From: Dehalococcoidia bacterium
GTDB taxonomy: Bacteria > Chloroflexota > Dehalococcoidia > Lucifugimonadales > UBA3495
DNA length: 15,813 bases
Assembly (NCBI GenBank): GCA_030740155.1
Contig: JASLXV010000049.1
Span: forward strand, 1 to 15,813
Reading direction: 5' to 3'
Positions 1 to 15,813 of this stretch are shown here, piece after piece. The notes beneath the pieces are model-generated. The model was not told where the DNA came from. It searched no databases and saw nothing but the letters and a program-made list of their open reading frames with translations. Every line of letters begins with the position of its first letter. The first letter of the stretch is position 1. The position numbers and the translations under genes were made by a program.

Positions 1-122
1 AGCGCAGAAAGGAGGTGAAGGCTCAAACGATCGATAGGCGAAGACTTCATAACCGGACCCTCAGGCAGCTCACCCAAGCTCTTCCACACCTCTGATCTCT
101 CGGGTCCCAAACTGTCCCATTT
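1..122. mobile_element. Possible end of an inserted element or rearrangement junction interrupting the ThiF/E1-like gene
   Basis: ThiF-like sequence stops abruptly at about 123. Bases 1-120 are about 55% GC by hand count, visibly lower than the adjacent gene. A tandem GTCCCA repeat with 10-bp period (104-109, 114-119) sits beside the junction. No transposase or integrase gene is visible in the window. Confidence 0.3.
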
Positions 123-565
123 GTGCTGGTTGCCAACAGTCGAGTGTCGAAGACGCCCTTGAGCCGGCTGAACACGTCAGTCTCCAGCCGGACCACCTCG
201 GTCTCGCAGGCTTCCGGAGGGGCCGATTGGGAGGGGAAGAAAAACGCTCTCAGGGACGGCGTCTCCGGGCCGGCCACCGCAAGCACCAGGAGATGGCTGG
301 TTCCCGGAGCGGCGAGGCCAACGGGATAGATAGGGACCCGGCCGGGGCCCACTAGGAAAGCGAAGCACCGCAGGTCCGCGCCGGTCTCGCCGGTTCCGGA
401 CAATGTATACGCCGGCCCTCCCTCCGGAACGCGAACGACGATGAGTTCCTCTTCCGCGTCGAGGGTTGCGGTCAGCTCCAGCAGAGGTGTGGCGTCAGAC
501 GGCGGCCGGGCCCCGGCTAGTTGAAACAGCTTCTGTTCCGCCCCTTCGTCCAGAACTACAAACAT
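47..565 (-). pseudogene. Truncated ThiF/E1-like (ubiquitin-activating enzyme family) protein, N-terminal fragment, possibly with a degenerate JAB/MPN-like N-terminal domain
   Basis: The segment EVVRLETDVFSRLKGVFDTRLLATST resembles the 'FSR..G......L' element that precedes the GxGxxG Rossmann motif in ThiF/MoeB/E1 proteins. No GxGxxG follows in any of the three minus-strand frames before the window edge. The ORF lies directly downstream of an E2-like gene. Confidence 0.6.
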
Positions 566-664
566 CGGTCGGCTTTCATCACGCCTGGTAGCGCAGTAAC
601 TCGGCTCAATTCGATGCGCGTGGCCTCCAGCGTGTTGGGGACCCAGCGCCGGGCCACCGGAGGA

Positions 665-1768
665 TCAGTAGCTGGTGGTGATTACGAGGTCATCGTGCTC
701 CGGGCGGGGCCAGTGGCCCGTTTCGAGCCACACCTCGTAGCAATGGAGCCAAAGGGAGACCCACGACATCACCGTGGCGGCGGTTGTCTTCGGTCCCCAA
801 GACCGGTCATCCTTATGAAAGAGGCAGAGGTGGCCATCGGGGTAGATGTGACGGCTCTGTTCAATCTTCGGCTTCATCACGTAGACCTTGGGCGGCCTAT
901 ACGGAAAGGAGTCGGGATAGCGGAGGTGCACTTCGTACTCGTGGCCGGCCCAGGTAGTTACAATGCCCTGCCAGAAGCAGTCGCCGTCGGGGGCGGAGCC
1001 CATCTGGAAACTCGGGTAGAAGCGCCGCATTACCTGCTGCTCTTGCTCCAGCAGCCGCGCCTTCACCCGGTACCATTGTTTCGGCCGGGCATACCAGGTG
1101 TTTTCCTTGATGGTGGCCACGGGCTTGCCGTCCTTGGTCCGGAGCACGCCGTCCTTGAGTTCGACATCGTCCAGGCCCAGGACGGTGCCATCCATGGAGA
1201 CGCCAACCTCATCACGCTCGATGGCCTCAACGACTCCGGCCCACTCCGCGCTGCATTCGGAGCACCTCTGTTGCTGGTCCGGGTCCCGGTGGTCGTCGCC
1301 AACGATTCGCCGGCATTTCTGGCAGGTAAACGTCTGGCTCGCGGGCAGCCGGTCGTGGCATAGGGAGCAAAGGACCTTCCGCCCTTCGGTGCACTTGGCG
1401 CACTTTCGCAGGTCCTGGTCGTAGTGCTGGGCGCACAGTGGCGTCAGGCCGCAATTGGGGCAGCGAAAATTGCGGTCCTCATACACCTGTTCGCCACCGA
1501 ACGCGCAGTACATCAACCGCATCTGCTGCTGGATGATCACGTCGCGGCCCGCCACGTTGCCTTCCCCAACGCCCTGAACTTTAACGTTGCCGGGGCCGCT
1601 GGAGGCCGGGCCGGCCCCTGAGACCGGCGCCGGCGTTTCCGGCTCCCCGTCGTCGGACGCTGGTTCGGCCACTGCGAGGCCCTGATCCAACGGCTTCCCG
1701 CAATCGCCGCAGAACCCCTGCCCCGGTTCCGGGTTGTACTCCGTTTGGCAATGAGGACATTGGGCCAT
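665..1768 (-). CDS. Multidomain prokaryotic E2 (ubiquitin-conjugating/UBC fold) protein with N-terminal zinc ribbon and two tandem Cys/His zinc fingers
   Basis: C-terminal WQG...YEVHLRYPDSFPYRPPKVYV...HIYPDGHLCL...W matches the UBC signature (P.xP..PP.V; H....G.ICL); the catalytic Cys codon is at 824-826. The N-terminus has CPHC..CGDC plus two Cys/His clusters. Start placed at ATG 1768 because of the SD-like AAGAGGTG at 1777-1784; the ORF track extends to 1819. Confidence 0.8.
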   Translation of the reverse strand: MAQCPHCQTEYNPEPGQGFCGDCGKPLDQGLAVAEPASDDGEPETPAPVSGAGPASSGPGNVKVQGVGEGNVAGRDVIIQQQMRLMYCAFGGEQVYEDRNFRCPNCGLTPLCAQHYDQDLRKCAKCTEGRKVLCSLCHDRLPASQTFTCQKCRRIVGDDHRDPDQQQRCSECSAEWAGVVEAIERDEVGVSMDGTVLGLDDVELKDGVLRTKDGKPVATIKENTWYARPKQWYRVKARLLEQEQQVMRRFYPSFQMGSAPDGDCFWQGIVTTWAGHEYEVHLRYPDSFPYRPPKVYVMKPKIEQSRHIYPDGHLCLFHKDDRSWGPKTTAATVMSWVSLWLHCYEVWLETGHWPRPEHDDLVITTSY

Positions 1769-2116: not shown

Positions 2117-3322
2117 ATGGACAAGAACCCCGAAGCAGTGGTGATCGGCGGAGGGATCGTGGGCGCGAGCATCGCCCATTACCTGGCCCTCAAAGGCCTC
2201 AAGAACACCGCGTTACTGGAAAAGGAAGCCCTGGCCAGCGGCGCCACCGGCGTGGCTACCGCCCTGGTCCGGATGCACTACACCAACCCTTGGGACTCCC
2301 AGCTGGCGCTCCGGAGCTGGGAGGTCTTCGACAACTGGGATGAGTTGATCGGCGGAAGCTGCGGTTTTAACAAGACGGGGTTTATCTTCACCGTGGGCCA
2401 CCGGGAGACGGAGAAGCTGCAGAAGAACGTCGACATCATGCGCGATGTCTCCGGCATCAACACCCGCGTCCTGTCCGCGGCGGAGCTGAAGGAGATGCTC
2501 CCCCTCTGGAACTTCGATGACATCGGCGCGGCAGCCTACGAGCCCGATAGCGGATACGCCGACCCTTATTCGGCAACCACCAGCCTGGCGGGCCGGGCCC
2601 GGGAGTTGGGTGTCTCCATCTTGCTTGGCGTGCGGGCCACCGCCATACGCACTGAGGGGGGCCGGGTAACGGGGGTGGAAACGTCCACGGGCTTCATCTC
2701 GACGCCCACCGTGGTGCTGGCCGCCGGAGCCTGGTCCACTCCCCTGGCGCGGACCGCCGGCCTGGAGCTGCCCGTCACCGGGATGCTGCTCTCCGCGGGC
2801 ATTCTGGAGCGTCCCGCGGGGCTGGAAGAGTCACACCTGGCCTGCATCGACGCCTCCCAGGGAATCTATTTCCGGCCCGACACCGGGAAGCTGACCATTG
2901 CCGGCCTCAGCAGCGTGGTCGACCGGCGGGAGTCCCCCAAGGACCTGGACCCGGACCGTTTCACCACTGAACCCCCGCTGGACTGGACGGTGCGAACCGG
3001 GACCCGGATGGCCAACCGCATTCCCGGCATGATCGACGCCGGCTGGCAAAGGGCCTGGAGCGGGGTTGACGGCAACACGCCGGACGGCCACGCCATTCTG
3101 GACCGGGCCCCCGGGGTGGAAGGGCTGTATCTGGCCGTGGGAATGAGCGGCACCGGGTTCAAGACAGCGCCCGCCGTCGGCATTTGCATGGCGGAGCTGA
3201 TAACCGAAGGAGCCGCCCGTACGGTGGACATCGTCCCCTTCAGCCTCAGCCGCTTCAGCGAGGGCCGGCTTCTGGTCGGCCAGCACGAGTACAACCATTA
3301 CTTCGCTGAGACCGGGCCGTGA
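2117..3322 (+). CDS. FAD-dependent oxidoreductase, DAO / sarcosine oxidase beta / glycine oxidase family
   Basis: N-terminal VVIGGGIVG..IA..LA dinucleotide-binding motif, LEKE..ASGATG, VVLAAGAWS, TPDG.AIL, G.SG.GFK.APAVG. Start placed at ATG 2117 (GAGG upstream) rather than 1883. Confidence 0.92.
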   Translation: MDKNPEAVVIGGGIVGASIAHYLALKGLKNTALLEKEALASGATGVATALVRMHYTNPWDSQLALRSWEVFDNWDELIGGSCGFNKTGFIFTVGHRETEKLQKNVDIMRDVSGINTRVLSAAELKEMLPLWNFDDIGAAAYEPDSGYADPYSATTSLAGRARELGVSILLGVRATAIRTEGGRVTGVETSTGFISTPTVVLAAGAWSTPLARTAGLELPVTGMLLSAGILERPAGLEESHLACIDASQGIYFRPDTGKLTIAGLSSVVDRRESPKDLDPDRFTTEPPLDWTVRTGTRMANRIPGMIDAGWQRAWSGVDGNTPDGHAILDRAPGVEGLYLAVGMSGTGFKTAPAVGICMAELITEGAARTVDIVPFSLSRFSEGRLLVGQHEYNHYFAETGP

Positions 3323-3326
3323 CGCC

Positions 3327-3362
3327 GGGCGGGGCGACCCGCCCCCGGGAGGTTTTACCTCC
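3327..3362 (+). terminator. Possible terminator or stabilising hairpins after the DAO gene
   Basis: GGGCGGG-GCGA-CCCGCCC (GNRA loop) at 3327-3344, then GGAGGT-TTT-ACCTCC at 3348-3362. There is no clean U-tract. Confidence 0.3.
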
Positions 3363-3551
3363 ACCGCCTCTTCGCGGCTTCCCAACGCTCGCCACAGTGC
3401 CACGCGGCCCCCGGCGGCCGGGGTTTCTACCCGGCCCGCCACCAGATAAGGGAGCGTTCACCGGGGGCTTGCAGTGTTTCCCGGCCCAAGGTATCCATGG
3501 GCCAATCCCCATCTGGCTTTTGACAGCTTCCGCGCACCGTTTTTCACCGCT

Positions 3552-3580
3552 TTGACAGGAGTTAGTCATTCGTAGACAAT
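3552..3580 (+). promoter_or_regulatory. Putative sigma70-type promoter of the catabolic operon
   Basis: Perfect TTGACA (3552-3557), 17-nt spacer, GACAAT (3575-3580), in an AT-richer patch about 120 nt upstream of the LeuC-like start. Confidence 0.55.
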
Positions 3581-3701
3581 ATCGAATATGTGGCTGGGCG
3601 GTGGCCGGGCGGCGGGCCGTCACTCCGGCCACGGTCCAGCGCAGCTAGCCGGGCCCCGTGGCGGCTTTTCGCCAGCTTTTCGTTTGAAGGGAGGACCAAT
3701 C

Positions 3702-4979
3702 GTGGGCCAGACAATGGCGGAGAAGCTCTTTTCCCGGAAAAACCTGGCAGGCTCCCCGGTGAAAGCGGGGGAGATCATCGAGGCCAAACTCGACGGTCTC
3801 ATGTTCCATTACGGCCTCTTCAGGGCCACCCAGCAAGCTATCGAGGCCGGCTTCACCGAGGGCCTGCCCCGGGTGTGGGACCAAGACCGGGTCTTTGTCC
3901 TGGTGGACCACCACCAACCGGCGCCCACCCAGGCCCTGGCCGACCGCAACCAGGTATTGCGGCGCCAGGTAGAGCGGCTGGGCATCAAGACCTTCCACGA
4001 CGCCGAGCCGGGCATCGCCCATCAAATGATGCCGGACTACGGGCTGGTGCGGCCGGGAGAGCTGGTCCCCGGCACCGACTCCCACGCCGTCGCCTACGGC
4101 GCCCTCAACGCCGGGGGGACCGGAATCTCCGGCATCGAAGCAGTATATGCGGCAATCTTCGGCGAACTCTGGTTCCAGGTGCCCAAGACCGTCAAGGTGG
4201 TCCTGGAGGGGCATCAGCCCAGCTACCCTATAGCCAAGGATATTATCCTGAGTCTGGCGGGCCAGTACGGCGACGATTTCGCCGGCAGTTTGTCCATCGA
4301 GTACACCGGCTCCCTGGTTCCTCAGCTCACCATGGACAGCCGGATGTGCCTTTCGACCCACGGCGTGGAAGTGGGGGCCAAATTCGCCCTGTTCCCGGCG
4401 GACGAAAGGACCCACGAGTACATTCGGCGCAAGACGGATAAACCGTATGAGCCGCTGGTCGCCGACCCGGACGCCGAATACGAGCGGGAGCTCGTCCTCA
4501 ACGTGGACGAGATGCCTTTCGTGGTGGCCAAGCCCCACCAGTTCGGCAACGTGGCGCCCGTGGAGGAGGCGGCCGGGACCAAAGTAAACCAGGCGCAGAT
4601 CGGCTCGTGCGCCAACGGCCGCTTCGAGGACATCGAGATCGCCGCCCGGATGCTGCGGGGGCGCAAGGTAGCCAAAGGGGTCCGATTCATCGTGTCACCG
4701 GCTTCCCAGGGGGTCTACCTGCAATGCCTCGAGGCCGGGCTGGTTCGGACCATCGTCGAGGCCGGCGGCCAGTTCGCGGGCCCCGGATGCAGCATATGCC
4801 AGCCGATGCTGGGATTCATTTCCGAAGGCGAAGTCTGCATCACCGCCACCACGCGGAACTTCAAGGGGCGCAAGGGCAGCCTGAACGCCGACATCTACCT
4901 GGCCGGCCCGCTGACAGTCACGGCGGCAGCCGTGGCGGGGGAGATCGTAAATCCCAAGGAGGTGTTCCATGACCTCTAA
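3702..4979 (+). CDS. Aconitase-family hydro-lyase large subunit (LeuC / homoaconitase-like, 4Fe-4S)
   Basis: MGQTMAEK start (GTG 3702, GGAGG at 3690-3694), DHH, GI.H, GTDSH, IGSCANGR.EDI, CSIC, TRNF.GR.G. All three Fe-S Cys ligands are present. Confidence 0.93.
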   Translation: MGQTMAEKLFSRKNLAGSPVKAGEIIEAKLDGLMFHYGLFRATQQAIEAGFTEGLPRVWDQDRVFVLVDHHQPAPTQALADRNQVLRRQVERLGIKTFHDAEPGIAHQMMPDYGLVRPGELVPGTDSHAVAYGALNAGGTGISGIEAVYAAIFGELWFQVPKTVKVVLEGHQPSYPIAKDIILSLAGQYGDDFAGSLSIEYTGSLVPQLTMDSRMCLSTHGVEVGAKFALFPADERTHEYIRRKTDKPYEPLVADPDAEYERELVLNVDEMPFVVAKPHQFGNVAPVEEAAGTKVNQAQIGSCANGRFEDIEIAARMLRGRKVAKGVRFIVSPASQGVYLQCLEAGLVRTIVEAGGQFAGPGCSICQPMLGFISEGEVCITATTRNFKGRKGSLNADIYLAGPLTVTAAAVAGEIVNPKEVFHDL

Positions 4980-5475
4980 TATCAACCGAGTGATGCGAGG
5001 CCGGGCTTGGACCTTCGGCGACTCCGTCGAAACCGACATCATCTACCCTTTCTATCTGTACCCTTCGATGGAAGAAGTGAAGAAGCACACCATGGAGGCC
5101 CTGCGGCCCGAGTTCGCCAAAGAGGTCCAGGAAGGGGACATCGTGGTGGCGGGGCGGAACTTCGGCTGTGGCTCCTCACGGCCGGCCACAGTGCTCCGGG
5201 AAGTCGGCGTCGCCGCTATCATCGCCGAGTCGACATCCCGGTTGCTGCTCCGCAACAATGTGGCTCAGGCCATCCCAACCTTCGTCGCGCCGGGGATCAC
5301 CGGCATCGTCGAAAACGGGGACGAGCTTGAGATCGACTACCCTAATGGCATCGCCCGGAATCCCAGGACCGGCGCGCAGGTTGCGCTGACCAAGTATCCT
5401 CCACTGATAGAGCAGATTTACGAGGCCGGGGGCATGCTGGAATACGCCCGCCGCCGTTTCATCGCCGAGACGTAG
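4969..5475 (+). CDS. Aconitase-family hydro-lyase small (swivel) subunit (LeuD-like)
   Basis: GRAW.FGD.V.TD.I.P, V..GDI.VAGRNFGCGSSR, IAES..R, GG.L. Overlaps the large-subunit gene by 11 nt. Confidence 0.92.
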   Translation: MTSNINRVMRGRAWTFGDSVETDIIYPFYLYPSMEEVKKHTMEALRPEFAKEVQEGDIVVAGRNFGCGSSRPATVLREVGVAAIIAESTSRLLLRNNVAQAIPTFVAPGITGIVENGDELEIDYPNGIARNPRTGAQVALTKYPPLIEQIYEAGGMLEYARRRFIAET

Positions 5476-5543
5476 CCGTAATCGGCGGACTCGAATCCAG
5501 AGTTCTCCACCAAAGTTCTCGAAACGAGGAAGGAGCTTTTTGT

Positions 5544-7004
5544 ATGGACAAAGAGGTCAGCTGCGGAGTGGTGGTAGCCGGCGCCGGAAACGCCGCCCTG
5601 AGCGCGGCGGTATCGGCCGCCGAAGCGGGCGCCAAGGTGGTCGTGCTAGAAAAAGCTCCCGAGGCTCTGCGGGGCGGCAACACCTACTTCACCGGCGATT
5701 TCCGGTTCCCCTGGGCCTCGGTTGAAGACCTGGCGCCCCTGGTGCCGGACTTTTCCGATGCCGAGGCCAAGGGCATGAGGGATGCGTCCACCCCCTACTC
5801 TCAAGCCGACTTCTACGACGACGTGATGCGGGTGACCGAGGGCCGCTCCGACCCCGAGTTGTTGGAGCTGCTGGTGAGCCAGGCGTTCCCCACCATGCAG
5901 TGGATGGCGGCCATGGGGCATACCTGGGTACCAAGCTACGCCAACCCCACGGCCAGCATGCCGGTGGCCCTCAACGGCGGCGGCGCGACTCTCTCCGACC
6001 ACTGGTTCGACGTGGCCGCCCGCAAGGGTGTGGAGATACTCTACGACCACCAGGCTATCGAGTTGCTCCCGGACTCCGCGGGTGAGATCAGCGGCGTCCG
6101 CGTCCAAACCCCGGAGGGGTACACCACATTCCACGCCAAGGCGGTGATCCTTGGCTGCGGCGGATTCGAGTCCAACGCGGCCATGCGTTGCAGCTACCTC
6201 GGGACGGGCTGGGACATGGTCAAAGTCCGCGGCGTACCCTTCAACACCGGCGACGGCTTGCGCATGGCCATGGACATCGGGGCCTGGCCCCACGGCCACT
6301 GGGGCGGTTGTCACGCCTCTCCCCAGGACTTGGCCCTTCCCGAGTACAGCCTGCGCTCCGGCATCCCTTCCTCGGACTACGCCCGCTACGCCTACCCCTT
6401 CAGCGTGATGGTGAACCTCCAGGGTCAGCGGTTCGTGGACGAGGGCTCGGACTCTCGGACCTACACCTACGCCAAGACCGGCCGGGCCATCATGGCCCAG
6501 CCCCAGGCCGTGGCCTTCCAGATATTCGACCGGAAGTGCGAAAGCCTCCTGGGAGACTACCAGCGGGCCAGCGGTGGCTGGGCCAAGACGCTGCCGGAGC
6601 TGGCCAACATGCTGGGGGTAGATCCGGAAGGATTGGTGCGCACCATCGAGGAGTACAACGCCACGGTGCAGCCGGGGGACTTCAATCCGATGCGGAAGGA
6701 CGGCAATCATACGCTGGGCCTCGATATCCCCAAGTCCAACTGGGCCCAGACCATTGATGAGCCGCCGTTCTACGGCTGCGCCGTCGTATGCGGCATCACT
6801 TTCACCTACGGGGGAGTGCGCATCAACACCAAGACCCAAGTCTTGCACACCACGAACCGGCCGATCCCCGGGCTGTACGCCTGCGGAGAGATGGTGGGCG
6901 GTATATTTTATGTCGGGTACGCCGGCGGATCGGGCATGACCCAGGGCTCTGCCTTCGGGCGCATCGCCGGCAACGAGGCCGCCCACCGGTCCCTGGGCGA
7001 GTAA
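5544..7004 (+). CDS. tcuA: FAD-dependent tricarballylate dehydrogenase TcuA-like flavoprotein (FAD_binding_2)
   Basis: GAGNAALSAA..A.E.GA.V.VLEKAP...RGGN, GGFESN..MR..YLG.GWD..KVRG..FNTGDG, GHW.GCHA, RFVDEG......TYAK.G, GITFTYGG, GLYACGE.VGG.FY..Y.GGSG. SD AGGAG at 5531-5535. Confidence 0.85.
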   Translation: MDKEVSCGVVVAGAGNAALSAAVSAAEAGAKVVVLEKAPEALRGGNTYFTGDFRFPWASVEDLAPLVPDFSDAEAKGMRDASTPYSQADFYDDVMRVTEGRSDPELLELLVSQAFPTMQWMAAMGHTWVPSYANPTASMPVALNGGGATLSDHWFDVAARKGVEILYDHQAIELLPDSAGEISGVRVQTPEGYTTFHAKAVILGCGGFESNAAMRCSYLGTGWDMVKVRGVPFNTGDGLRMAMDIGAWPHGHWGGCHASPQDLALPEYSLRSGIPSSDYARYAYPFSVMVNLQGQRFVDEGSDSRTYTYAKTGRAIMAQPQAVAFQIFDRKCESLLGDYQRASGGWAKTLPELANMLGVDPEGLVRTIEEYNATVQPGDFNPMRKDGNHTLGLDIPKSNWAQTIDEPPFYGCAVVCGITFTYGGVRINTKTQVLHTTNRPIPGLYACGEMVGGIFYVGYAGGSGMTQGSAFGRIAGNEAAHRSLGE

Positions 7005-7085
7005 AGCCGGCCCGGAACCCCCATCCAGCACTGCTCGCTTCCAAACGCGGGGCCGCCGCCACGCAGGTGAGTAGGAGGAAACGAT

Positions 7086-8507
7086 ATGATGCAGACCGCC
7101 AGCGAGACGGTAACCCATAGAGACGCGTCTTCCGACCTGGCCCGCCACGCGGTGACACTAGCCTACGGCGCGCTGCCGCCGTCCGTGGTGGAGCTGACCA
7201 AGCAGTGCGTGCTGGATACCCTGGGCGTTATCATCGGCGCCGGCCAACTGGCCCCGGAAGCCCAAGCCGTGGCCGGCTTCGTCAAAGAGATGGAAGGCAA
7301 ACCGGAGAGCACCCTCCTCAGCTTTGGAGGCCGGGCCCCGGCGCCCTGGGCCGCCTTTTCCAACGGCAGCCTCGGCCACATGATCGACTACGATGACCGG
7401 TGCGGCGGAGGGCATCCCAGCGTCACCACGGTGCCGGTGGCCTTCGCCACAGCCGAAAAGCTGGGCGGCGTCTCGGGCCGGGAGCTGCTGGCCGCCATCG
7501 CCGCGGGGGTCGACATCCAGACCCGGCTCAGCCTGGCCATTCCCGACGTGGAGTGGACCATGACCGAAGGGTGGTTCGCCACTCAGCTCCTGGGGTTCCA
7601 GTCCGGCGCCGCCACCGCGGGCCGCCTGCTGGGTCTGAACGAAGAGCAGATGCTGAACGCCCTGGGCATTGCGTTCACCCAAGCCAGCGGCAGCCGGGAG
7701 ATGGCGGTGGGCACCGCCACCCATGCCCGGGCCCTGCAAGCCGGCTTCACCGGACAAGGCGGCATCGTCGCCGCGCTGTTGGCCGGTCGGGGCATCACCG
7801 GGCCTCGGAACAGCCTGGAGGGCCGGTATGGACTGTACCAGGTCTACCTGCACACCAAACCCGACCGCGACGCCCTGATCGGCGAGCTGGGGACCCGTTT
7901 CTCCACCCTGGACGACCACTGCTTCAAGGCGTGGCCCGCCTGCGCCGCCACCCGATCCCCGGTGGGGGCCCTCCTGGGTCTCCGCGAAGCCCACGGCATC
8001 CGGCCCGAGGATGTGGAGGAGATCGTGCTGGTGGGAGGGGACATGCACACCCAGTTGCTTTCGGAGCCCCTGGAGTCCAAGCGGTGTCCCCAGACCAGCA
8101 TCGATGCCAAGTACAGCATTCCTTTCACCATTGCCGCGGGCATGGTCAATGGGAACGTCACCCTGGGGGCCTACACCCCCGACGGCCGCATCGACCCCGA
8201 CGTACTGGCCATGGCCGGCCGAGTGCGCCACCAGCCGGTGCCGGAGGATCGTAAGACCTCCCTAATCCCCACCGTGGAAGTCCGGACGAAGGACGGCCGG
8301 GTGTTCTCCAAGGCCGAGGAGTTTCCCCTCGGAGACAACGAAAACCCCATGTCTCAGGAGCAGATCGAAGCCAAGTTCCGCGATTGCGTATCCTTCTCGG
8401 CCCGGCCCGTACCGCCGGCAAACGTGGACCGGGTGATCGACCTGGTGAACCGGCTCGAAACATTGTCCGATGCGACGGAAGTCATCCGGCTCCTGTCCCC
8501 AAGCTAA
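7086..8507 (+). CDS. MmgE/PrpD family protein (2-methylcitrate dehydratase / epimerase / decarboxylase superfamily)
   Basis: LDTLG, AAF.NG...H..DYDD....HP, SGRELL.A...G, NALG.A..QASG, G.TG....LEG..G, FK.WP.C, AKYSIPF, G...NPM......KF. SD AGGAGG at 7073-7078. Confidence 0.92.
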   Translation: MMQTASETVTHRDASSDLARHAVTLAYGALPPSVVELTKQCVLDTLGVIIGAGQLAPEAQAVAGFVKEMEGKPESTLLSFGGRAPAPWAAFSNGSLGHMIDYDDRCGGGHPSVTTVPVAFATAEKLGGVSGRELLAAIAAGVDIQTRLSLAIPDVEWTMTEGWFATQLLGFQSGAATAGRLLGLNEEQMLNALGIAFTQASGSREMAVGTATHARALQAGFTGQGGIVAALLAGRGITGPRNSLEGRYGLYQVYLHTKPDRDALIGELGTRFSTLDDHCFKAWPACAATRSPVGALLGLREAHGIRPEDVEEIVLVGGDMHTQLLSEPLESKRCPQTSIDAKYSIPFTIAAGMVNGNVTLGAYTPDGRIDPDVLAMAGRVRHQPVPEDRKTSLIPTVEVRTKDGRVFSKAEEFPLGDNENPMSQEQIEAKFRDCVSFSARPVPPANVDRVIDLVNRLETLSDATEVIRLLSPS

Positions 8508-8553
8508 GCCATAACCGCACCGCACCGGCAGGCCGCGGGCCGAAGGAGTGAAA

Positions 8554-9660
8554 ATGGCTACCGACCCGAAAACCGAAGGCATCGTCTTGATGGGCACCGG
8601 CGACGTGGGGCCGATACACGAGCCAATGAGCCAGTACCCGGAGTTGGTGCGCCCCACCCTCGCCGAAGCACACATCCGTTTCGGCCAGTGCGAGCGCCTC
8701 TACTCGGACCGGGGGACGCTCCAGATACATTCCAACGGCCACCACAGCCGGCTGGCCCCCAGCATGGCTTCGATCTTCACCGATTGCGGGTTCGACGTGG
8801 TTTCCCTGGCCAGCAACCACTCCATGGACTGGGGAGAGGACGCGCTAATGGACACCTGCGAGCTGATGCAGGAATTGGGTATCCAAACCGCGGGCGCGGG
8901 CGCGAACCTGGACGAGGCGAGACAGCCCGCCATCGTGGAACGGGACGGGGTCAAGGTGGCGTTCCTGGCCCGCTGCTCCGTCCTGCGGGACGGGTACGCC
9001 GCGGAGGCAAAGAAGGTCGGGGTTGCGCCGCTGCGAGCCCACACCTACTACGAGGCCCAAGAGTACCAGGCGGGCACTCCACCCCGGGTGGTTACCGTAC
9101 CCTGCTCGGAAGACCTGGAGATGCTGCGGGAGGACATCCGGAAGGCCCGGCAGCAGGCCCACGTGGTGGTTATCTCTCTGCACTGGGGCATCCACTTCAT
9201 CCCCCGGGTCATCGCGGACTACCAGCCGTTGGTAGCCCATGCCGCTTTCGAGGCCGGGGCAGACCTTATTTTGGGCCATCACGCCCACGTGCCGAAGGGC
9301 ATCGAAGTGTACCAGGGGAAGGCCTGTTTCTACAGCCTGAGCAACTTCATGATGTCCAGTTCCGGCACGTCCAAGGCCATGCTGGACCGCTACAACATTG
9401 AACTGGACCCGGAGTACCCGCATCTGCCCTACGGCGCCGCCGCCAAGCGAAGCTTGATAGCCCGGGCGGTACTCTCGACCGAGGGGGTCAAACGGGTCTC
9501 CTTCCTTCCGGTCATGATCGACAAGCAACTGAGGCCCGAGGTGCTACATCAGGGAGATGCCCGCTTCGACGACGCGATAAGCTACATGGATTGGGCATCG
9601 GAAGGGCTCGCCCATCGGTTCGACGTGCAGGGCGACGAGGTGGTGCTCACCGGGTCTTGA
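8554..9660 (+). CDS. CapA family (PGA_cap) metallophosphoesterase-fold protein, apparently cytoplasmic
   Basis: GD, GFDVVSLASNHSMDWG, AGAG.NL.EA..PAI, SLHWG, AGADLILGHHAH, YSL.NF. No N-terminal TM segment or signal peptide. ATG 8554 with AAGGAG at 8543-8548. Confidence 0.9.
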   Translation: MATDPKTEGIVLMGTGDVGPIHEPMSQYPELVRPTLAEAHIRFGQCERLYSDRGTLQIHSNGHHSRLAPSMASIFTDCGFDVVSLASNHSMDWGEDALMDTCELMQELGIQTAGAGANLDEARQPAIVERDGVKVAFLARCSVLRDGYAAEAKKVGVAPLRAHTYYEAQEYQAGTPPRVVTVPCSEDLEMLREDIRKARQQAHVVVISLHWGIHFIPRVIADYQPLVAHAAFEAGADLILGHHAHVPKGIEVYQGKACFYSLSNFMMSSSGTSKAMLDRYNIELDPEYPHLPYGAAAKRSLIARAVLSTEGVKRVSFLPVMIDKQLRPEVLHQGDARFDDAISYMDWASEGLAHRFDVQGDEVVLTGS

Positions 9661-9712
9661 GCCAAGGCGCCACCCGCAACCGAACCAGTGAATTAGAACT
9701 CGGAGGTCAGCC

Positions 9713-10630
9713 GTGTCAACCACCAAAGCCACCACCCAGCTCCGCCAACTCATCCACCGCCAGGGCCAGGTCATGACGGTCATGCATCCACCCAGCGTGG
9801 CCCTGGGACGGGTCATGGAGGCCGCCGGTACCGAGGCCGGGTTCAGCGGCACCTCCGGCGTGGTGGGCTCCTATACGGGGCTGGCCGATGTGGGCGTGGC
9901 GACCCTGTCGGAATGCCTGATGGTGGCGGGCTGGATCGCCAGAGCGGTCAATTTTCCCATCATCATGGACGGCGACACCGGCCACGGCGGCATCATGGCC
10001 GTCCGCCGGATGGTCCGGGAGTGCATCCGGGCCGGCGTGGCGGGCGTGCGTATCGACGACCAGGCCATCGAGCGCAAACGCGGCACCGGCTCCGGCGGTA
10101 TCGTGCTGGAGGACCTGGATATCGTCCTGGGCCGCTACGCCGCCGCCGTGGATATGAAGAACGAGCTGGACCCCGATTTCGTCGTCATGGCCCAGTGCTA
10201 CGCCGGAGAGTCGGAAGACGCCGGTCTGGATAACGCGATACGCCGCATGACCGCCTACAAAGAGCAGGGCAAGGTGGACTGGGTACAGTTCTCGGCGCCC
10301 CGGTCCGCCGAGGAGATAAAGCGGGCCCGTCAGGCCATCTCCGGCCCCTTTTCGGTGATGCAGGGCCACATGCCCACGCCCCTCAGCGATGAGGAGCTAC
10401 TGGAGATCGGGGTCACCATCGCCTGGGTGCCGGGTATCACCCATAGAGTTACCTACGTGGCCCTGTACGACTTCGTCAAGGACTTCATGGAGAGAGGAGC
10501 CCAGGCGGTCGATGACTTCGAGAACCGCAACGCCGGCCATCCGTTCGTTCACGGCGCCCTCAGCCGTGGCGTGGACGGTGAAGACACCGCCAAATTCCAG
10601 GAGCTGGAGGCCAAGTACTTCTCCAGCTAG
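9713..10630 (+). CDS. Isocitrate lyase / PEP mutase superfamily protein with divergent active site
   Basis: G..D.G..TL.E, PII.DGDTG.GG...V.R.V, AGVAGV.IDDQ, DPDFV.MA. GTG start with GGAGG at 9702-9706. Confidence 0.88.
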   Translation: MSTTKATTQLRQLIHRQGQVMTVMHPPSVALGRVMEAAGTEAGFSGTSGVVGSYTGLADVGVATLSECLMVAGWIARAVNFPIIMDGDTGHGGIMAVRRMVRECIRAGVAGVRIDDQAIERKRGTGSGGIVLEDLDIVLGRYAAAVDMKNELDPDFVVMAQCYAGESEDAGLDNAIRRMTAYKEQGKVDWVQFSAPRSAEEIKRARQAISGPFSVMQGHMPTPLSDEELLEIGVTIAWVPGITHRVTYVALYDFVKDFMERGAQAVDDFENRNAGHPFVHGALSRGVDGEDTAKFQELEAKYFSS

Positions 10631-10664
10631 ACTTGAAGATTCAGATCTAGGGAGGACGGAATCC

Positions 10665-11147
10665 ATGACCCAACCAGAGACCATCACCGAGGTCCTTGAG
10701 CCGGAACACCGCTGGATCGACGAACGGTTCGAGCGGTTCCAGGCCCTGCTGGCCGCCGGCCAAGTTGATGCGGAACCCTTCGAGGAGGCCTCGAAGGCCC
10801 TGCACCGTCACATGTACGTGGAAGAGGAGATACTATTCCCCGAGGTGGCGACGCGGGGCTTGGCGGCCCCAGTGGAGGTGATGTTCCAGGACCACGGAGA
10901 GATTGCCCGGCGCATGAACGCCGTACACGGGCTCATCGCGAGCGGCGCCCCTCCTTCGGATCTCGAAGCCGCCCTCGAGGCCGTGATTCAGGTCCTGGGA
11001 GAGCACGGCACAAAAGAGGAGATGATCCTGTATCCGACCGCCGACCAGGTCCTCGTCGGTCCGGATTTTGCTCAACTCGTGGAACGGGTAAGGAGCGAAG
11101 CGGTGCCGGAAGGCTGGTTGTGCCGCGTGCTCGCCGGCGAGAAATAG
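10665..11147 (+). CDS. Hemerythrin (HHE) domain protein
   Basis: EHRWID, RHMYVEEEILFP, MFQDH, EH..KEE.ILYP (paired H-x3-E motifs). ATG 10665 with GGAGG at 10651-10655; the longer 10389 start overlaps the upstream gene and is unlikely. Confidence 0.88.
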   Translation: MTQPETITEVLEPEHRWIDERFERFQALLAAGQVDAEPFEEASKALHRHMYVEEEILFPEVATRGLAAPVEVMFQDHGEIARRMNAVHGLIASGAPPSDLEAALEAVIQVLGEHGTKEEMILYPTADQVLVGPDFAQLVERVRSEAVPEGWLCRVLAGEK

Positions 11148-11434
11148 GGTAGCGCAGGTATCCGGTGTCGGCTTGTTCCCGACGGGGCGAAGCAGCCGGT
11201 GATTTTGGCTTAGGGTCCGACCGAGCAAGCCCGCGGCTCTGGCCAAGGCTCGGTGATTGTCTGGCGCCGGCAATCCCGGGCCGGCGCTCGTTGCTGGCAC
11301 CCAGGGTCAAGACCAACCGACTGCAAAGGGTAATCACGTCTTACGCGGGCGTTCGCTCCCGTCCGTCCGGAGGGCTTCTCAGCTGGTGCGGAAAACTGCC
11401 CGCGTGCTCACCCTCGTCGGGCCGGCCTTCGCAT

Positions 11435-11543
11435 CCCCGTCATTCCGGCGAAAGCCGGAATCTAGGCGCCGCTTTCACCACAAAGGCGAAGTCGGTGGGG
11501 AAGCCCACGTCTATGGATTCCGGCCTGCGCCGGAATGACGGGG
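11435..11543. repeat. REP-like palindromic doublet (two inverted CGTC-type REP units, REPIN-like)
   Basis: CCCCGTCATTCCGGCGAAAGCCGGAATC (11435-11462) and GATTCCGGCCTGCGCCGGAATGACGGGG (11516-11543) are inverted copies, 26/28 identical. Each is itself a hairpin. Confidence 0.85.
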
Positions 11544-11592
11544 GGGGGGAGGACGCCAGTGTCGGGGTATGACCTATCCCAGAGTCAAAGAG

Positions 11593-13296
11593 CTAGGCGT
11601 CGTTGCCCTGGCCGGCCCAATTCCCCTTGCATGACAGGCAATACCGGCTGATTTGGGAGACCAGCGCGGTTTCTTCCTTCCCCAGTATCGCCTCTAACCT
11701 ACGAAGCATGCTCGAAGAGGCTACCGGAGCGCCGCAGGTAACGCAGCGGGCCTCTCGGTCCCGGCAGAGGGTTACCGGCTCTTCGGTGAGCCGGGCGAAG
11801 TCGGTCGTCCGCTTCACTCCGATTGCCCCGGCGACACTTTCCGGACACACCGGGAGGCACTTCTCGCAGGCGACGCACCGGCTTCCATCGAAAACGAGTT
11901 CGACCCGTTCGTCGTCCCGCTGGGTCGTCAAGGCTCCCGTTGGGCAAGCATCGGCGCACACGCCGCACAGGGTGCACAGCTCCGGAACGACCTCCACGAC
12001 TCCGACCGGAGCACCGGGATGATCGAGGGTGAGGGTGGTTGGTAACCCGTATCTTTCTTTCAGCGTGCGAAGGGCCAAGCCCAACGCCGCCGGGCCGAAC
12101 ATACTCTCAATGGACTCCTCGGCCGGGGCGGCGCCGGAGCCCAGCGGTGCGGTAATTGACCCAATCCGTTCCGGCTCATCTTCGGGGCTCACCAGGGTTA
12201 CCAGCTCAGGCGCCTGGCCAAACGACCGAAGCAGCGCGTGGCAATAATCCACCCTCTCCTCGACGAGCGCCCGTTGACCGGGGGGGCAGGCGTCACCGCA
12301 GGCCGTCAAGCCCACCGGCAATCCGGAGGCCACGCACCTGAGAATGCAGCTTGCCGGCACCATTCCAACGCAGGGCACCACCAAGGGGAGCCAATAGGGC
12401 GACGCACCCACACCTCCCGGCCCCGCCTTCTCGACAGCCGGGATACTCTTCCGGCAGGTGAACAGGACCCGGCGTTCCGTCAGATCGTCGTCAAATCGTA
12501 TCGAGTCCGTTGCCAGCAGAACCCCGATCTGGGCCTCGATTTCGGCGGGAGAACCCCCCGGAAGGCGAACGGCGTCCTTGGGGCATACCGCCAGGCAGTT
12601 GCCGCATCCGTCACACCCCAACCGGCTTATCTCAATGAACTCCCCGGTGCTGGCCATTGCGTCCCGGGGGCAGGCCTGAACACAGAGGGAGCAGCCCTCG
12701 CCAGCCGTGCAGCGCCGGCCATCGATGGAGGCCACCACCTGATACTCAATAGGCGGCAAGGTGAATAAAGCGCGGCGACTGACCTTTTGGGTCAGCATGG
12801 CCAGGCACGGTTTGACGTTCTCGGGCGTACTTCCCGGATAGGCACGTGCCTTCGCGACGGCGCCGGCCAGCAGAAGCTTGGCCTTTTCGGTTCCGCGGTC
12901 CTCCCCCTTCACCTGGGAACAAAGGCCTCCCAGGCTCACGGGGACGATGCCCAGCGGGTCCAGGCCGGCCTTCCTGGCCTCGGCATGGAGCGCCACCTCG
13001 GAGTAGTCCAGAGCGCATAGGCCCAGGACGACGTGTTGGAACCCGGCCTCGCCGGCGCGACGGACTTCCTCGGCGGCGTGGCAAAGGTCCGCTACCACCC
13101 GGGCCTGAAGATCCTCGTTCCCCTGTTCAAGCCAGCGGCAAAGCTCTTCAAGGTTCAGGCCGTTACCCATCGTCCGCAGGTCCTGGCAAAGCAGAACGGC
13201 GGTGGACGTGGTTGGGTTCTTCTGCCTAAGGCCATCTTTTATCGCGAGGGCCGCCACAGGCCCAACTTTTCCATTGGAAGAAACCAATGAGTTCAT
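11593..13296 (-). CDS. Multi-4Fe-4S protein: HdrA N-terminal-like domain, ferredoxin pair, MvhD/FlpD-like domain, second ferredoxin pair, C-terminal CxxC...CxxC
   Basis: CTAGEGCSLCVQACP, CDGCGNCLAVCP, CTLCGVCADACP, CVACEKCLPVCP; FTC / VPCVG / ACGDAC; GLDP.....V....CS.V......TEKAK.L...AVAKAR. ATGA overlap with the upstream gene at 13293-13296. Confidence 0.85.
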   Translation of the reverse strand: MNSLVSSNGKVGPVAALAIKDGLRQKNPTTSTAVLLCQDLRTMGNGLNLEELCRWLEQGNEDLQARVVADLCHAAEEVRRAGEAGFQHVVLGLCALDYSEVALHAEARKAGLDPLGIVPVSLGGLCSQVKGEDRGTEKAKLLLAGAVAKARAYPGSTPENVKPCLAMLTQKVSRRALFTLPPIEYQVVASIDGRRCTAGEGCSLCVQACPRDAMASTGEFIEISRLGCDGCGNCLAVCPKDAVRLPGGSPAEIEAQIGVLLATDSIRFDDDLTERRVLFTCRKSIPAVEKAGPGGVGASPYWLPLVVPCVGMVPASCILRCVASGLPVGLTACGDACPPGQRALVEERVDYCHALLRSFGQAPELVTLVSPEDEPERIGSITAPLGSGAAPAEESIESMFGPAALGLALRTLKERYGLPTTLTLDHPGAPVGVVEVVPELCTLCGVCADACPTGALTTQRDDERVELVFDGSRCVACEKCLPVCPESVAGAIGVKRTTDFARLTEEPVTLCRDREARCVTCGAPVASSSMLRRLEAILGKEETALVSQISRYCLSCKGNWAGQGNDA

Positions 13297-14000
13297 GGCG
13301 CCTCCCTAACAGCATCAAAACGGAGCAGCAGGCCATCGATCAGGTCGCCGTCGTGTACGATGAACGCCCCGGCGGCCCGGGTCGCGCTGGCGAAGACGCC
13401 GTCAGGGTTCAGTGCGTTCACTCCGCAGGCGAATTGCGGAAACCAACGGTTCAGGTGGGCTCTCAGAAACCTGCGCTCGGTTTTCAGGAATTGGCGGGCC
13501 TGGCGTATGTCCTCGGCCTCCCAAAACTCCGCCTCTCGGGCGCAAAGAAAGCTCATGAACTCCAGCTCCACGGCCACGTGGTCCGGCGCTTGGCGCGGGG
13601 ATGACGAGGCAGCAAGACCCGCGCGAGCGTATTCGATCTCCAGTTGGGCCAGCAGCAGGGCCGCAGCGGCGGGCTCCGGCGCCAAGTAGACCGATTCGTA
13701 GATTGGACAGGGAACGTTGGGGCGGCTGACCTGGAAGCTGGAGACATACTCGCCCTGGAGGGCGGCGGCCTGCTGCGGACCCAAGCCCGCCAGGGCGTCA
13801 AGAAACAGGTCCCACTCCCGGAAAAAGGCGAAGCCGGCCCACGGTTCACTCTGGCGGGCCAGCTCCCCGGCCACGATTCCGATGGTCTCCACCCTCTCGG
13901 TGTCAGGATAGACCAGGCTCTGGCTGAAGAGCCGGTAGGCGGCCTGGCGCAGGCGCGTCAGGCTCTCCAAGGGACATAGTTTCTCCGAAACTGTTCTCAT
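13293..14000 (-). CDS. TorD/DmsD family molybdoenzyme maturation chaperone
   Basis: R...Y.LFS.....P, PIYESVY, PDHVAVELEFM..L, FL..HL..W.P.F motifs, in operon context. Confidence 0.93.
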   Translation of the reverse strand: MRTVSEKLCPLESLTRLRQAAYRLFSQSLVYPDTERVETIGIVAGELARQSEPWAGFAFFREWDLFLDALAGLGPQQAAALQGEYVSSFQVSRPNVPCPIYESVYLAPEPAAAALLLAQLEIEYARAGLAASSSPRQAPDHVAVELEFMSFLCAREAEFWEAEDIRQARQFLKTERRFLRAHLNRWFPQFACGVNALNPDGVFASATRAAGAFIVHDGDLIDGLLLRFDAVREAP

Positions 14001-14006
14001 TACGGG

Positions 14007-15167
14007 TTATGCTCGTGCTGATGTTGAGGCATGGGGTTCATCCGCCAGACCCAAAACCTTCTCGCCGACCGTGTAGAGCACCAGAATCATGGAAAGCGCC
14101 AGTATCACGTACGACCATTCCCACACGGACGGGGTATACTTCACGAACTCCGGCAACCACTGGCCGTGGAGTACCGGTTCGTACTCCCCCGCCAGCACCA
14201 GGTCCATGCGTCCGGCGAAGAGCCCGATGAGCGCTGACACCGGCGCCGCTACGAGGGCCCACGTCTTTCTCCGCAACGCGGGCACTCCCAGCAGAATGAG
14301 GGGGAGTACAAACCCGAGCCAGACCTCAATGTGCCAATAGTAGGTCTCGACGGCGTGGCTGAGGCTGGCATAACCCGCCGCCTCCGACCCGGGATATACC
14401 GTCACGATCACCCTCCACGTGAAGAAGAGGGAGACCAGGGCGATAACCAGGGCGTAGTGCTTGGCGACATGATCCATCATGCCCCGCATTTGGTCACGGA
14501 TGCCCTGCTTCGAGACAGCCTGAGTGACCAGGGTGAAGAGCATTATGGCGCCGAATCCGCTGAACAGCGCTGTCAGGAGGAAGTACACCGGCATAAAGGC
14601 GCCGAAGTGCGCGGGGCGGCCGATAACGAAGCCAAACACCGCTCCCAGGGTAGAGTGGGCTGCAATGGCCGATATGAGAGTGGCTATTCCAAGCACCTTG
14701 CCGAGTTGGGTATCCGACCTGCCTGTCTGTATTGTCCAGAACTTGCCTACCAACACCACCAGATATATGGAGTACAGCAGGGACATCCACCACATGGCTG
14801 AGGTGGGGTTGGGGGAGAACATGAAGTTTATGGCCCGGAAGGGTTGACCCAAGTCACTCCCGATTACCACAAATCCGGCGAGCAGCGCCAATATGGCGAT
14901 GAAGACAGCTCGTTTGGCGATAGGCCGGTAGGTCTCGATGCCGAAGACCATGTACAGAGATGCGACGAAGGTAAGCCCTGTAGAGGTGAGGACCAGGAAA
15001 ACGTAGAGGGATATCCCGAGTCCCCAGGGCACCAGGTCCGTCGTATTGAAGACTTCCGAGTGATCGTGAGTTAGTATCCACAGGATAGCAAAGACCCCCC
15101 AGGCCAAACCTAATCCCAGAAACCCCAGCCAACCGAAGTAAACGGGGGACCTCCACTGTACTAGCAT
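14007..15167 (-). CDS. nrfD: NrfD/PsrC family polytopic membrane anchor subunit
   Basis: VPWGL.I..Y.F, DLG.P.R, PNPTS.MWWM..LY..Y, HSTLG..FG, P.YFL..A..SG, Y.PS..E, and many hydrophobic helices. AAGGAGG SD upstream. Confidence 0.9.
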   Translation of the reverse strand: MLVQWRSPVYFGWLGFLGLGLAWGVFAILWILTHDHSEVFNTTDLVPWGLGISLYVFLVLTSTGLTFVASLYMVFGIETYRPIAKRAVFIAILALLAGFVVIGSDLGQPFRAINFMFSPNPTSAMWWMSLLYSIYLVVLVGKFWTIQTGRSDTQLGKVLGIATLISAIAAHSTLGAVFGFVIGRPAHFGAFMPVYFLLTALFSGFGAIMLFTLVTQAVSKQGIRDQMRGMMDHVAKHYALVIALVSLFFTWRVIVTVYPGSEAAGYASLSHAVETYYWHIEVWLGFVLPLILLGVPALRRKTWALVAAPVSALIGLFAGRMDLVLAGEYEPVLHGQWLPEFVKYTPSVWEWSYVILALSMILVLYTVGEKVLGLADEPHASTSARA

Positions 15168-15219
15168 CTCAGCACCCTCCTTTTGAGTAGCGATATCCAG
15201 CCTGCTTGCCGTCCGGGGC

Positions 15220-15813
15220 TTAATCCTTCGCTATCACCGCTTCGATCTGCCGGGCCCCAATCCCAGGCTCGGCCCCGTTTATGTAGCGCACCTTGGGTCT
15301 GGTCCCGAACTCATCCTGCAGACGGAAAGAGGAGTTCCCGGCCAGGAGCTTGGAAACGTCGCTGTTGGGGTCGTCCAAGTCACCGAACTTTAGCGCGAAG
15401 GACGGGCAGTTGGCCACACAGGCCGGCTTGAGGTTTTTATCCAGCCGGTGGACGCAGAAGGTGCACTTCTGCACCACGCCTTTGACGTGCCCGCCGCCGG
15501 CGATGGACCGTTGCTCCGGGCCATATACCCTATCCAGGTCCGGGTTCTTATAGGGGGGCACGACGCCGTTGGTAACCCTTTCCAGGGCGGCCGCGGCCGG
15601 GGAGTCCCAATCCAGGTACTGGTTCTTCTCCGGGCTCTTCGCGTTGAAATAGTTGACGCCGTAGGGGCACGCGACCTCGCAGTAGCGGCAGCCGATGCAG
15701 CGTTTCCAGTCGACGGCTATCACGCCATTGTCCTTCTTGTACCGTGCCCCGACGGGGCAAACCTTCACACAAGGGGCGTTGTCGCAGTGCATGCAGGGGC
15801 GGGGCATGAACCG
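15220..15813 (-). CDS. 4Fe-4S dicluster electron-transfer subunit (NrfC/PsrB/DmsB/DsrO family), 5'-truncated by the window edge
   Basis: PRPCMHCDNAPCVKVCP, CIGCRYCEVACPY, KCTFC.HR, PACV..CP, FGDLDDP.S.VS, GT.PKV.Y. The first Cys cluster is missing and the frame is open to the window end. Confidence 0.93.
   Translation of the reverse strand, partial: RFMPRPCMHCDNAPCVKVCPVGARYKKDNGVIAVDWKRCIGCRYCEVACPYGVNYFNAKSPEKNQYLDWDSPAAAALERVTNGVVPPYKNPDLDRVYGPEQRSIAGGGHVKGVVQKCTFCVHRLDKNLKPACVANCPSFALKFGDLDDPNSDVSKLLAGNSSFRLQDEFGTRPKVRYINGAEPGIGARQIEAVIAKD

Follow-up and report, generated by a model that had tools for sequence, protein, structure and literature searches.

A Dehalococcoidia E2 gene predicted to supply its own protein tag in a ubiquitin-like conjugation system

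In E2-CBASS, the clade G cyclases end in a helix plus a three-strand motif, the Gly of which is linked to the Cys of the E2; this Gly is numbered G398 or G406, differing between the two descriptions (PMC12948482; 10.1101/2022.05.25.493364). G406 of SmCdnG is the residue joined to SmE2 C101, and the linkage is abolished by G406V and G406L but tolerates G406A (10.1101/2022.05.25.493364). The motif also binds the E2 noncovalently at three interfaces (PMC12948482). In the Bub systems, BubAB provides a precedent for a tag-E2 precursor that is cut by a JAB peptidase, and the E1s use a crossover-loop Tyr as the nucleophile (PMC11601596). In processed ubiquitin-like modifiers (Ubls), exemplified by BilA, conservation ends at one residue and is followed by a variable tail (PMC10557695).

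Here, we analyzed an E2 gene of the Dehalococcoidia genome G000. The window, i.e., the whole stretch of DNA under study (15,813 nucleotides), is the entire contig C49 of this genome, and its start is the contig start. A sequence-only reading of the window had suggested an architecture possibly distinct from those of Cap2 CBASS, Bil, and Bub. This view was upheld, as defining features of each of these systems, and also of E2-CBASS, are missing.

The E2 gene and the broken E1 gene in the window

The features of the region are as follows.

665-1768, minus strand: E2 gene, ATG at 1768, 367 aa; zinc ribbon, linker, two zinc fingers, tag module, and E2, in this order; predicted precursor polyprotein
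1685..1768, minus strand: N-terminal zinc ribbon, aa 1-28, with C4, C7, C20, and C23; conserved, weak DZR match in 35/54 members
1523..1681, minus strand: low-complexity linker, aa 30-82; predicted disordered, pLDDT <50
1391..1507, minus strand: Cys/His finger 1, aa 88-126; C88, C103, C112, and C123 invariant
1253..1369, minus strand: Cys/His finger 2, aa 134-172; missing from some homologues
1091..1252, minus strand: tag module, aa ~173-226; helix, beta-hairpins, then I-K-E-N-T-W-Y226; predicted modifier end
1088..1093, minus strand: predicted cleavage junction between Tyr226 and Ala227; a rival register places the cut after Ala227
668..1084, minus strand: E2/UBC domain, aa 229-367; H307, H313, catalytic C315 (codon 824-826), and invariant terminal Y367
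141..565, minus strand: 5' remnant of the E1 gene (~142 codons of a 408-aa gene); N-terminal domain and first ThiF residues
1..138, no strand assigned: end of a multicopy element inserted in the E1 gene; imperfect TGT...ACA inverted ends; the contig ends inside the element

The E2/UBC domain with an intact His and catalytic Cys, as first read from the sequence, was confirmed. Its C-terminal part matched Pfam UQ_con (28.4 bits; cut-off, 27), PADLOC E2 models matched the ORF (best E, 5.5e-24), and the UBC fold expected for the C-terminal domain was found in residues ~227-363 of the AlphaFold model (Z up to 10.8). Among the fold matches, the best identity was to the Serratia E2-CBASS E2 (8hsb_B; 29%, Z 10.7). 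Both C315 and H313 are present in 54/54 aligned homologues and H307 in 53/54; H307 and C315 correspond to SmE2 H87 and C101 (mapped through the locus L080). The named homologue records belong to Dehalococcoidia, SAR202, or Chloroflexota. The zinc ribbon, linker, and two fingers noticed in front of the E2 were all present, and finger 1 gave only sporadic matches to FYVE, B-box, and Prok-RING_2 (2-3/54 members). In the linker, window positions 1520-1594 (aa 59-83) hold a semiconserved motif of Gly, Asn, and beta-branched residues, VGEGNVAGRDVII, which reads QVDIGDKVTNVY in others and which we take to resemble RHIM or amyloid-signaling motifs. As a shared interaction motif it was rejected: its HMM found no second carrier in the genome and the loci.

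The 99-nt spacer between the E2 ORF and the second ORF (566-664) was read correctly. On its own, the second ORF (47-565) had no Pfam and no PADLOC match. Over bases 141-565, it shows 100% identity to the beginning of a ThiF-family E1 of 408 aa that is intact in L024, a near-identical locus (99% identity) whose E1 protein matches ThiF (E 4e-35). The ORF is a chimaera, the final ~30 codons of which come from the repeated element at bases 1-138, and therefore the stop at 47 is not that of E1. E1 is cut after ~142 codons.

The genome contains 33 matches to the ends of the element, of which 17 lie at contig ends, and four internal copies of 229-273 bp have imperfect TGT...ACA inverted ends. This MITE-like, 229-273-bp element is active in G000; it is found at window positions 1-138, in contigs C27, C33, C57, and C66, and in others (33 and 44 end matches), and many contigs break inside it. 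The 3' remainder of E1 and the JAB gene are absent from the assembly. The same E1-element junction was detected in sequencing runs X1 and X6. Misassembly as the cause of the break is disfavored, since X1 shows this junction as a loose end and so does X6, which is not designated a source run. Run X1 holds pieces of the E1 3' part and JAB at a depth of 3.3 versus 17.7; their zero cover in X6, X17, and X19 proves nothing. Two RNA runs contain pieces of the E2 gene, one of them also the E1 5' part, which is no proof of transcription. Since E1 is broken by the element, this copy of the operon is probably inactive in the studied strain, and therefore the analysis rests on relatives. A second, independent inactivation was observed in L015 (positions 10001-12640; genome G003), where the E2 is split over two frames and a 431-aa ORF between E2 and E1 is presumably a transposase.

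The remainder of the contig (window 2117-15813) carries metabolic genes, namely those for FAD oxidoreductases, two paired aconitase genes, MmgE/PrpD, PGA_cap, PEP mutase, hemerythrin, and an NrfD/Fe-S/chaperone cluster. No link of the genes in 2117-15813 to the E2 operon was seen.

The operon in relatives

The family set comprised 58 loci, which form 26 groups at 90% identity. In relatives, the E2 gene heads a conserved E2-E1-JAB operon. The tabulated neighbors agreed with the proposed E1 partner, which lies directly downstream of E2 in 39 of the 40 loci with room for it, and added the JAB gene, invisible in the window and present in 28/29. The exceptions are L065 without E1 and L071 without JAB. 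In the listed loci, E1 and E2 are separate ORFs, and the best library matches were the PADLOC E1-E2 and JAB models. An NCBIfam search named no system.

The 408-aa E1 has one ThiF domain with intact adenylation and zinc motifs and no catalytic Cys: none of the 22 aligned E1s has a crossover-loop Cys between the zinc CxxC and EPG. Tyr312 of this loop is invariant (22/22), and its likeness to the Bub Tyr is a positional analogy only. A Tyr was found at the equivalent place in 7/8 further-ranging E1s in one listing, and according to a separate comparison the eighth has it too. The E1 N-terminal domain gave only subthreshold leads in the ESM Atlas (ThiF, 0.79; Cap2_linker, 0.77). That this domain is an inactive JAB was not supported (hhalign probability, 0.1%; no JAB motifs conserved there). 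In the JAB, E29, H89, H91, S99, and D102 are invariant (17/17). Weak evidence points to a Cys-less E2-like domain at its C terminus (RWD, E 0.03-0.05; profile match to E2, E 0.011).

An SPFH-like gene is present in 15/19 long loci, but only in 6/10 groups, and is often a fusion of a zinc ribbon, SPFH, a coiled coil, and a class III cyclase. Beside the operon (L043:8746-11127, L025:15112-17511, and L052:4075-7655), fusions of a zinc ribbon, an SPFH-like part, a coiled coil, and a class III adenylate cyclase recur, as do SPFH-zinc ribbon proteins and a 517-aa protein; all of these are candidate targets. The neighboring class III cyclase was rejected as a Pycsar-like modifier because its C terminus lacks the motif and it is usually encoded on the opposite strand. 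Among the conserved neighbors of the 58 loci there was no CD-NTase gene and no exporter. Clustering of 5,857 frames showed no recognizable conserved small ORF, and no conserved neighbor cluster was recognized as DUF6527 (BubE). A single CdnG query, run without a positive control, had no match in 5 genomes.

The E2 family is rare. A near full-length match was found in 3/61 relatives, and E1 was found at E <= 1e-40 in 1/301 genomes of the class. A split-type E2 query (see below) had no match in one scan of viral contigs.

The module in front of the E2 domain and its free counterparts

In distant homologues, the region just before the E2 consists of a helix and a V-x-V-x-x-x-G hairpin, followed after a variable linker by [ILV]-K-P-x-x-W-Z. 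P0077 and P0082 contain the module in tandem copies, and P0116 has it behind the E2. In 13 cyclase-free loci of the E2/E1/JAB type (L074, L076, L100, L101, L103, L113-L115, L127, L130, and L133-L135), it is a separate gene of 50-125 aa. Given the tandem repeats, the placement behind E2, and the separate gene, the module is autonomous. Other fusions were also observed: P0205 is an E1-E2 fusion in that order, one E2 among P0167, P0194, and P0156 carries what we take to be a TIR-like C terminus, and these four include a large protein of helical repeats in which the same zinc finger occurs several times.

Using hhalign, 17 nonfamily E2-fused modules matched the family module (93%, E 2.6e-7; score 35 versus a maximum of 15.6 in 60 shuffles). 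An HMM of these 17 ranked four free peptides first to fourth, above 52,741 background ORFs. The family-only HMM did not rank the free peptides high (best rank, 27), and therefore the family is linked to the peptides by way of the outgroup modules and of a profile match that is weak (12%; score 18.1 versus a shuffle maximum of 11.6). The ESM Atlas gave no lead for the module. When 401 sampled Chloroflexota genomes were searched with the E2 profile, 7 matched besides G000. Four of these have E2-CBASS loci, in which the E2 directly follows a long ORF with a CdnG-type tail; the other three have cyclase-free E2/JAB/E1 cassettes with the module as a separate small gene. Together with two earlier loci and the results of further searches, these make up the 13 free peptides.

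In 10 of the 13 free peptides, W-[FY] is followed by 0-8 unconserved residues: five end with [KR]PQRWF and then 0, 2, 3, 6, or 8 residues, and five with RRAWY and then 0, 2, 2, 2, or 6. The remaining ones are one with W-A and two ending G-E-[FY]. The peptides of L114 and L133, which belong to two lineages, terminate exactly on the aromatic residue; each comes from a single draft genome, one of them 16% contaminated. Conservation of the peptides stops at the residue after the Trp, which corresponds to Tyr226 of the window E2, invariant in 54/54 aligned homologues. At position 227, the same homologues have Ala (43), Val (8), Ser (2), or Thr (1), and none has Gly. The pLDDT of the E2 model falls to 59 at residues 221-230. 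In many fused outgroup copies, the residue after the Trp is Gly or Ala. An HMM that included the L103 peptide detected no peptide within 5 kb in 5/10 further regions.

Every cassette observed has an E2 with an intact Cys. In the split cassettes, the E2s end with EAD, EVD, or similar and lack the Tyr367 tail, yet the peptide is kept. One E2 clade outside the 54-member alignment ends in Ala or Ser instead of Tyr. SPFH, TPR/membrane, and Cys-less E2-like neighbors recur in the split cassettes too. In the Chloroflexota family f67 (L103, L127, L130, L133, and L134), the peptide has a long acidic, Pro-rich N terminus and is followed by a gene of ~400 aa, which in L103 belongs to the PCMT family and in the other four loci is an ORF of similar size resembling it. 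On a Mesorhizobium AR10 plasmid (L076:4810-9716), a 57-aa peptide ending GGEY is followed by E2, a Phd-antitoxin-E2-like fusion, E1, JAB, a further and presumably nuclease-like ORF, and a patatin; this proteobacterial cassette looks defense-like. On cyanobacterial plasmids (L079:1-5898 and L086:1-4392), a Bub operon directly adjoins an E2-CBASS operon.

We compared the module with the CdnG tail. SmCdnG ends VPKNTFYG and the window E2 reads IKENTWYA. Modeled on its own (pLDDT 72), the module has a helix and then hairpins, and its top match of 48,161 chains was SmCdnG 353-406 (Z 3.1, rmsd 3.7, 45 aligned), a target named beforehand. This match is weak, with unrelated chains tied within 1 Z, and Foldseek with the same model neither listed the SmCdnG tail nor named a clear fold. 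The structural alignment ends with Y226 opposite residue 406, in a tail that is poorly modeled. No beta-grasp chain appeared in the fold searches with the module, which does not exclude a beta-grasp. Module HMMs had no significant match to CdnG tails (best, 2.8 bits). The family-only profile scored below its controls (10.8 versus up to 16.0 for control windows; 10.5 versus a shuffle maximum of 11.1). The broad module profile scored above shuffles (14.7 versus 9.3 with 11 tails; 13.3 versus 9.3 with 15 tails) and above control windows (16.8 versus 11.3), but at only 1-6% probability. We conclude that the module is probably related to the E2-binding tail of CdnG.

Proposed mechanism and comparison with known systems

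The sequence-only reading had placed the modifier either beyond the break or among noncanonical ones; the noncanonical option is the better one, with a candidate inside the E2 ORF. The E2 gene probably specifies a tag as well as the enzyme that conjugates it in a ubiquitin-like tagging system. The cut at W225-Y226/A227 would be made by the JAB or, as in the case of SmE2, by the E2 itself, and would release the zinc-finger part ending with Tyr226. The ThiF E1 would then adenylate the new C-terminal aromatic residue, and the tag would pass via the crossover-loop Tyr312 (as an oxyester, by analogy with BubCD Y370) to Cys315 of the E2. Ligation to a target lysine would follow, with the zinc fingers riding as cargo or as targeting modules, and the JAB would take the tag off the target. 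Cys-less E2-like domains on the JAB and on neighboring SPFH or membrane proteins would bind the tagged proteins.

The same residues could be read in the register of CdnG, with the cut after Ala227 (the counterpart of G406), probably made by His307/Cys315 of the E2 as in E2-CBASS, and with an E1 that only recharges the released tag. The ends IKENTWYA and VPKNTFYG, the Ala at position 227 in 43/54, and the kept equivalents of SmE2 H87/C101 are in line with this register, as is the tolerated G406A (10.1101/2022.05.25.493364). We nevertheless regard it as rather unlikely: 8/54 homologues have Val at 227, the substitution that is dead in SmCdnG as G406V (same source); two free peptides end before the 227 equivalent and others have I, Q, G, S, or A there; and the structural alignment, in its poorly modeled tail, pairs Y226 with residue 406. 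For a cut after Tyr226, the loss of linkage in G406V and G406L implies that a bulky terminal Tyr would need a remodeled pocket.

Cleavage itself would be dispensable if the module were an uncut docking or autoinhibitory element of the E2 and the real modifier were the E2 C-terminal tail (Tyr367) or a sulfur-carrier-type Ubl encoded elsewhere. The noncovalent binding of the CdnG motif to E2 at its three interfaces (PMC12948482) would suit docking, Y367 is invariant together with E357 and D359 (54/54; window 668-700, aa 357-367), and the genome carries a separate ThiF-family gene elsewhere. But the E2s of split cassettes lose the Tyr tail while the peptide stays, conservation up to one residue followed by a variable tail of 0-8 residues is the pattern of processed Ubls (BilA, PMC10557695), and the tandem repeats suggest processing, which makes an uncut module unlikely in our view. 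Less still speaks for a RiPP-like maturation, in which the ThiF enzyme would adenylate the peptide C terminus for cyclization or a small-molecule adduct instead of protein attachment. The peptide-modifying ThiF-family enzymes MccB and PaaA are among the solved relatives of E1, and the PCMT-family methyltransferase gene of L103, with its look-alikes in four loci, would fit such a pathway. However, an intact-Cys E2 accompanies every cassette, the Dehalococcoidia family has no PCMT neighbor, its module bears a zinc-binding cargo of 170 aa, and exporters are not among the conserved neighbors; we consider this pathway very unlikely.

The likeliest role of the tagging system favored here would be signaling at SPFH membrane complexes during stress or when phages attack. 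The recurrent SPFH, TPR/membrane, and Cys-less E2-like neighbors are a pointer to membrane-complex signaling. The proposal of a distinct defense or stress module stands as far as the architecture is concerned; the defense role is putative, because most neighbors are SPFH, cyclase, or membrane genes and not defense genes. The patchy distribution and the repeated inactivation (studied strain and L015) fit a defense-like role, whereas the presence of a related split cassette in 10/14 sampled f67 genomes fits a fixed one and hints at a role beyond mobile defense islands. More tentatively, the loci may represent an undescribed conjugation family, in which a CdnG-type tail serves as a free-standing, non-beta-grasp modifier with a C-terminal Tyr or Phe, is transferred from an E1-Tyr oxyester to an E2-Cys thioester, and marks SPFH-associated membrane complexes. 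In this broader and possible reading, the modifier would exist as a peptide of ~50 residues, as tandem repeats, or as a zinc-finger tag fused to its E2.

In the excerpts of the compared papers, Ubl modifiers are activated at Gly, with Ala tolerated in one mutant test. If true, a Tyr or Phe at the end of a modifier, together with a mixed relay from Tyr to Cys, would broaden the known E1/E2 chemistry. The module indicates that the "ubiquitin-like" tail found on E2-CBASS cyclases likely also occurs independently, as a tag that can be swapped. The E2-CBASS authors suggest the cyclase tail as a possible ubiquitin ancestor; with the tail as an independent tag, this idea could be tested using three enzymes and a peptide of 60 residues.

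We compared the operon with known systems by their published descriptions, and it lacks features that define E2-CBASS, Cap2 CBASS, Bub, and Bil. With E2-CBASS (Serratia CdnG and E2; 8hsb), it shares the E2 subtype (29% identity, Z 10.7), the H87/C101 equivalents, and probably a helix plus beta-sheet C-terminal motif as the modifier end, and cyclase-E2 fusions are known there (10.1101/2022.05.25.493364; PMC12948482). In contrast to E2-CBASS, in which the E2 is alone as described, the present loci add E1 (39/40) and JAB (28/29), have no CD-NTase or CBASS effector among the conserved neighbors, and do not conserve the H152 equivalent. Their motif is attached to zinc fingers or stands alone as a free peptide, and its predicted reactive end is Tyr or Phe (Y226, 54/54; Gly at 227, 0/54) instead of Gly.

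Type I Bub (BubAB/BubCD/BubE) has a modifier-E2 precursor, as predicted here, and likewise an E1 with an invariant Tyr and no crossover-loop Cys, and a JAB peptidase. Its E2 uses Ser, whereas the present one uses Cys-His (C315, 54/54). Other differences from the Bub description are an active JAB encoded by a separate gene with a Cys-less E2-like tail, a modifier not recognizably beta-grasp, and no DUF6527 protein recognized among the conserved neighbors (PMC11601596).

Cap2-Cap3 (type II CBASS/Pycsar/MBL) combines a nonubiquitin C-terminal tail as modifier, as predicted here, with a homodimer-type ThiF E1 and a JAB, which are shared as well. However, Cap2 is an E2-E1 fusion with a crossover-loop Cys, while the present E1 and E2 are separate and the E1 lacks a catalytic Cys; no signaling enzyme bears the present tail, and the neighboring class III cyclase ends in unrelated sequence (10.1101/2022.03.31.486616). 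Bil types I and II share the separate E2, JAB, and E1 and, as predicted here, a modifier with a short unconserved C-terminal extension. The present operon differs from their description in gene order and has no IAD-AAD-CYS E1, and no separate beta-grasp gene was recognized in it (PMC10557695). It also matches none of the operon types 6a-6e as described in the excerpts of PMC1779556. The literature search found no description of an E2-E1-JAB system with a fused module; operon tables in paper supplements, which lay outside the search, could include such loci. By analogy, the E2 and tail of the operon would work as in E2-CBASS, and its E1 and precursor as in type I Bub.
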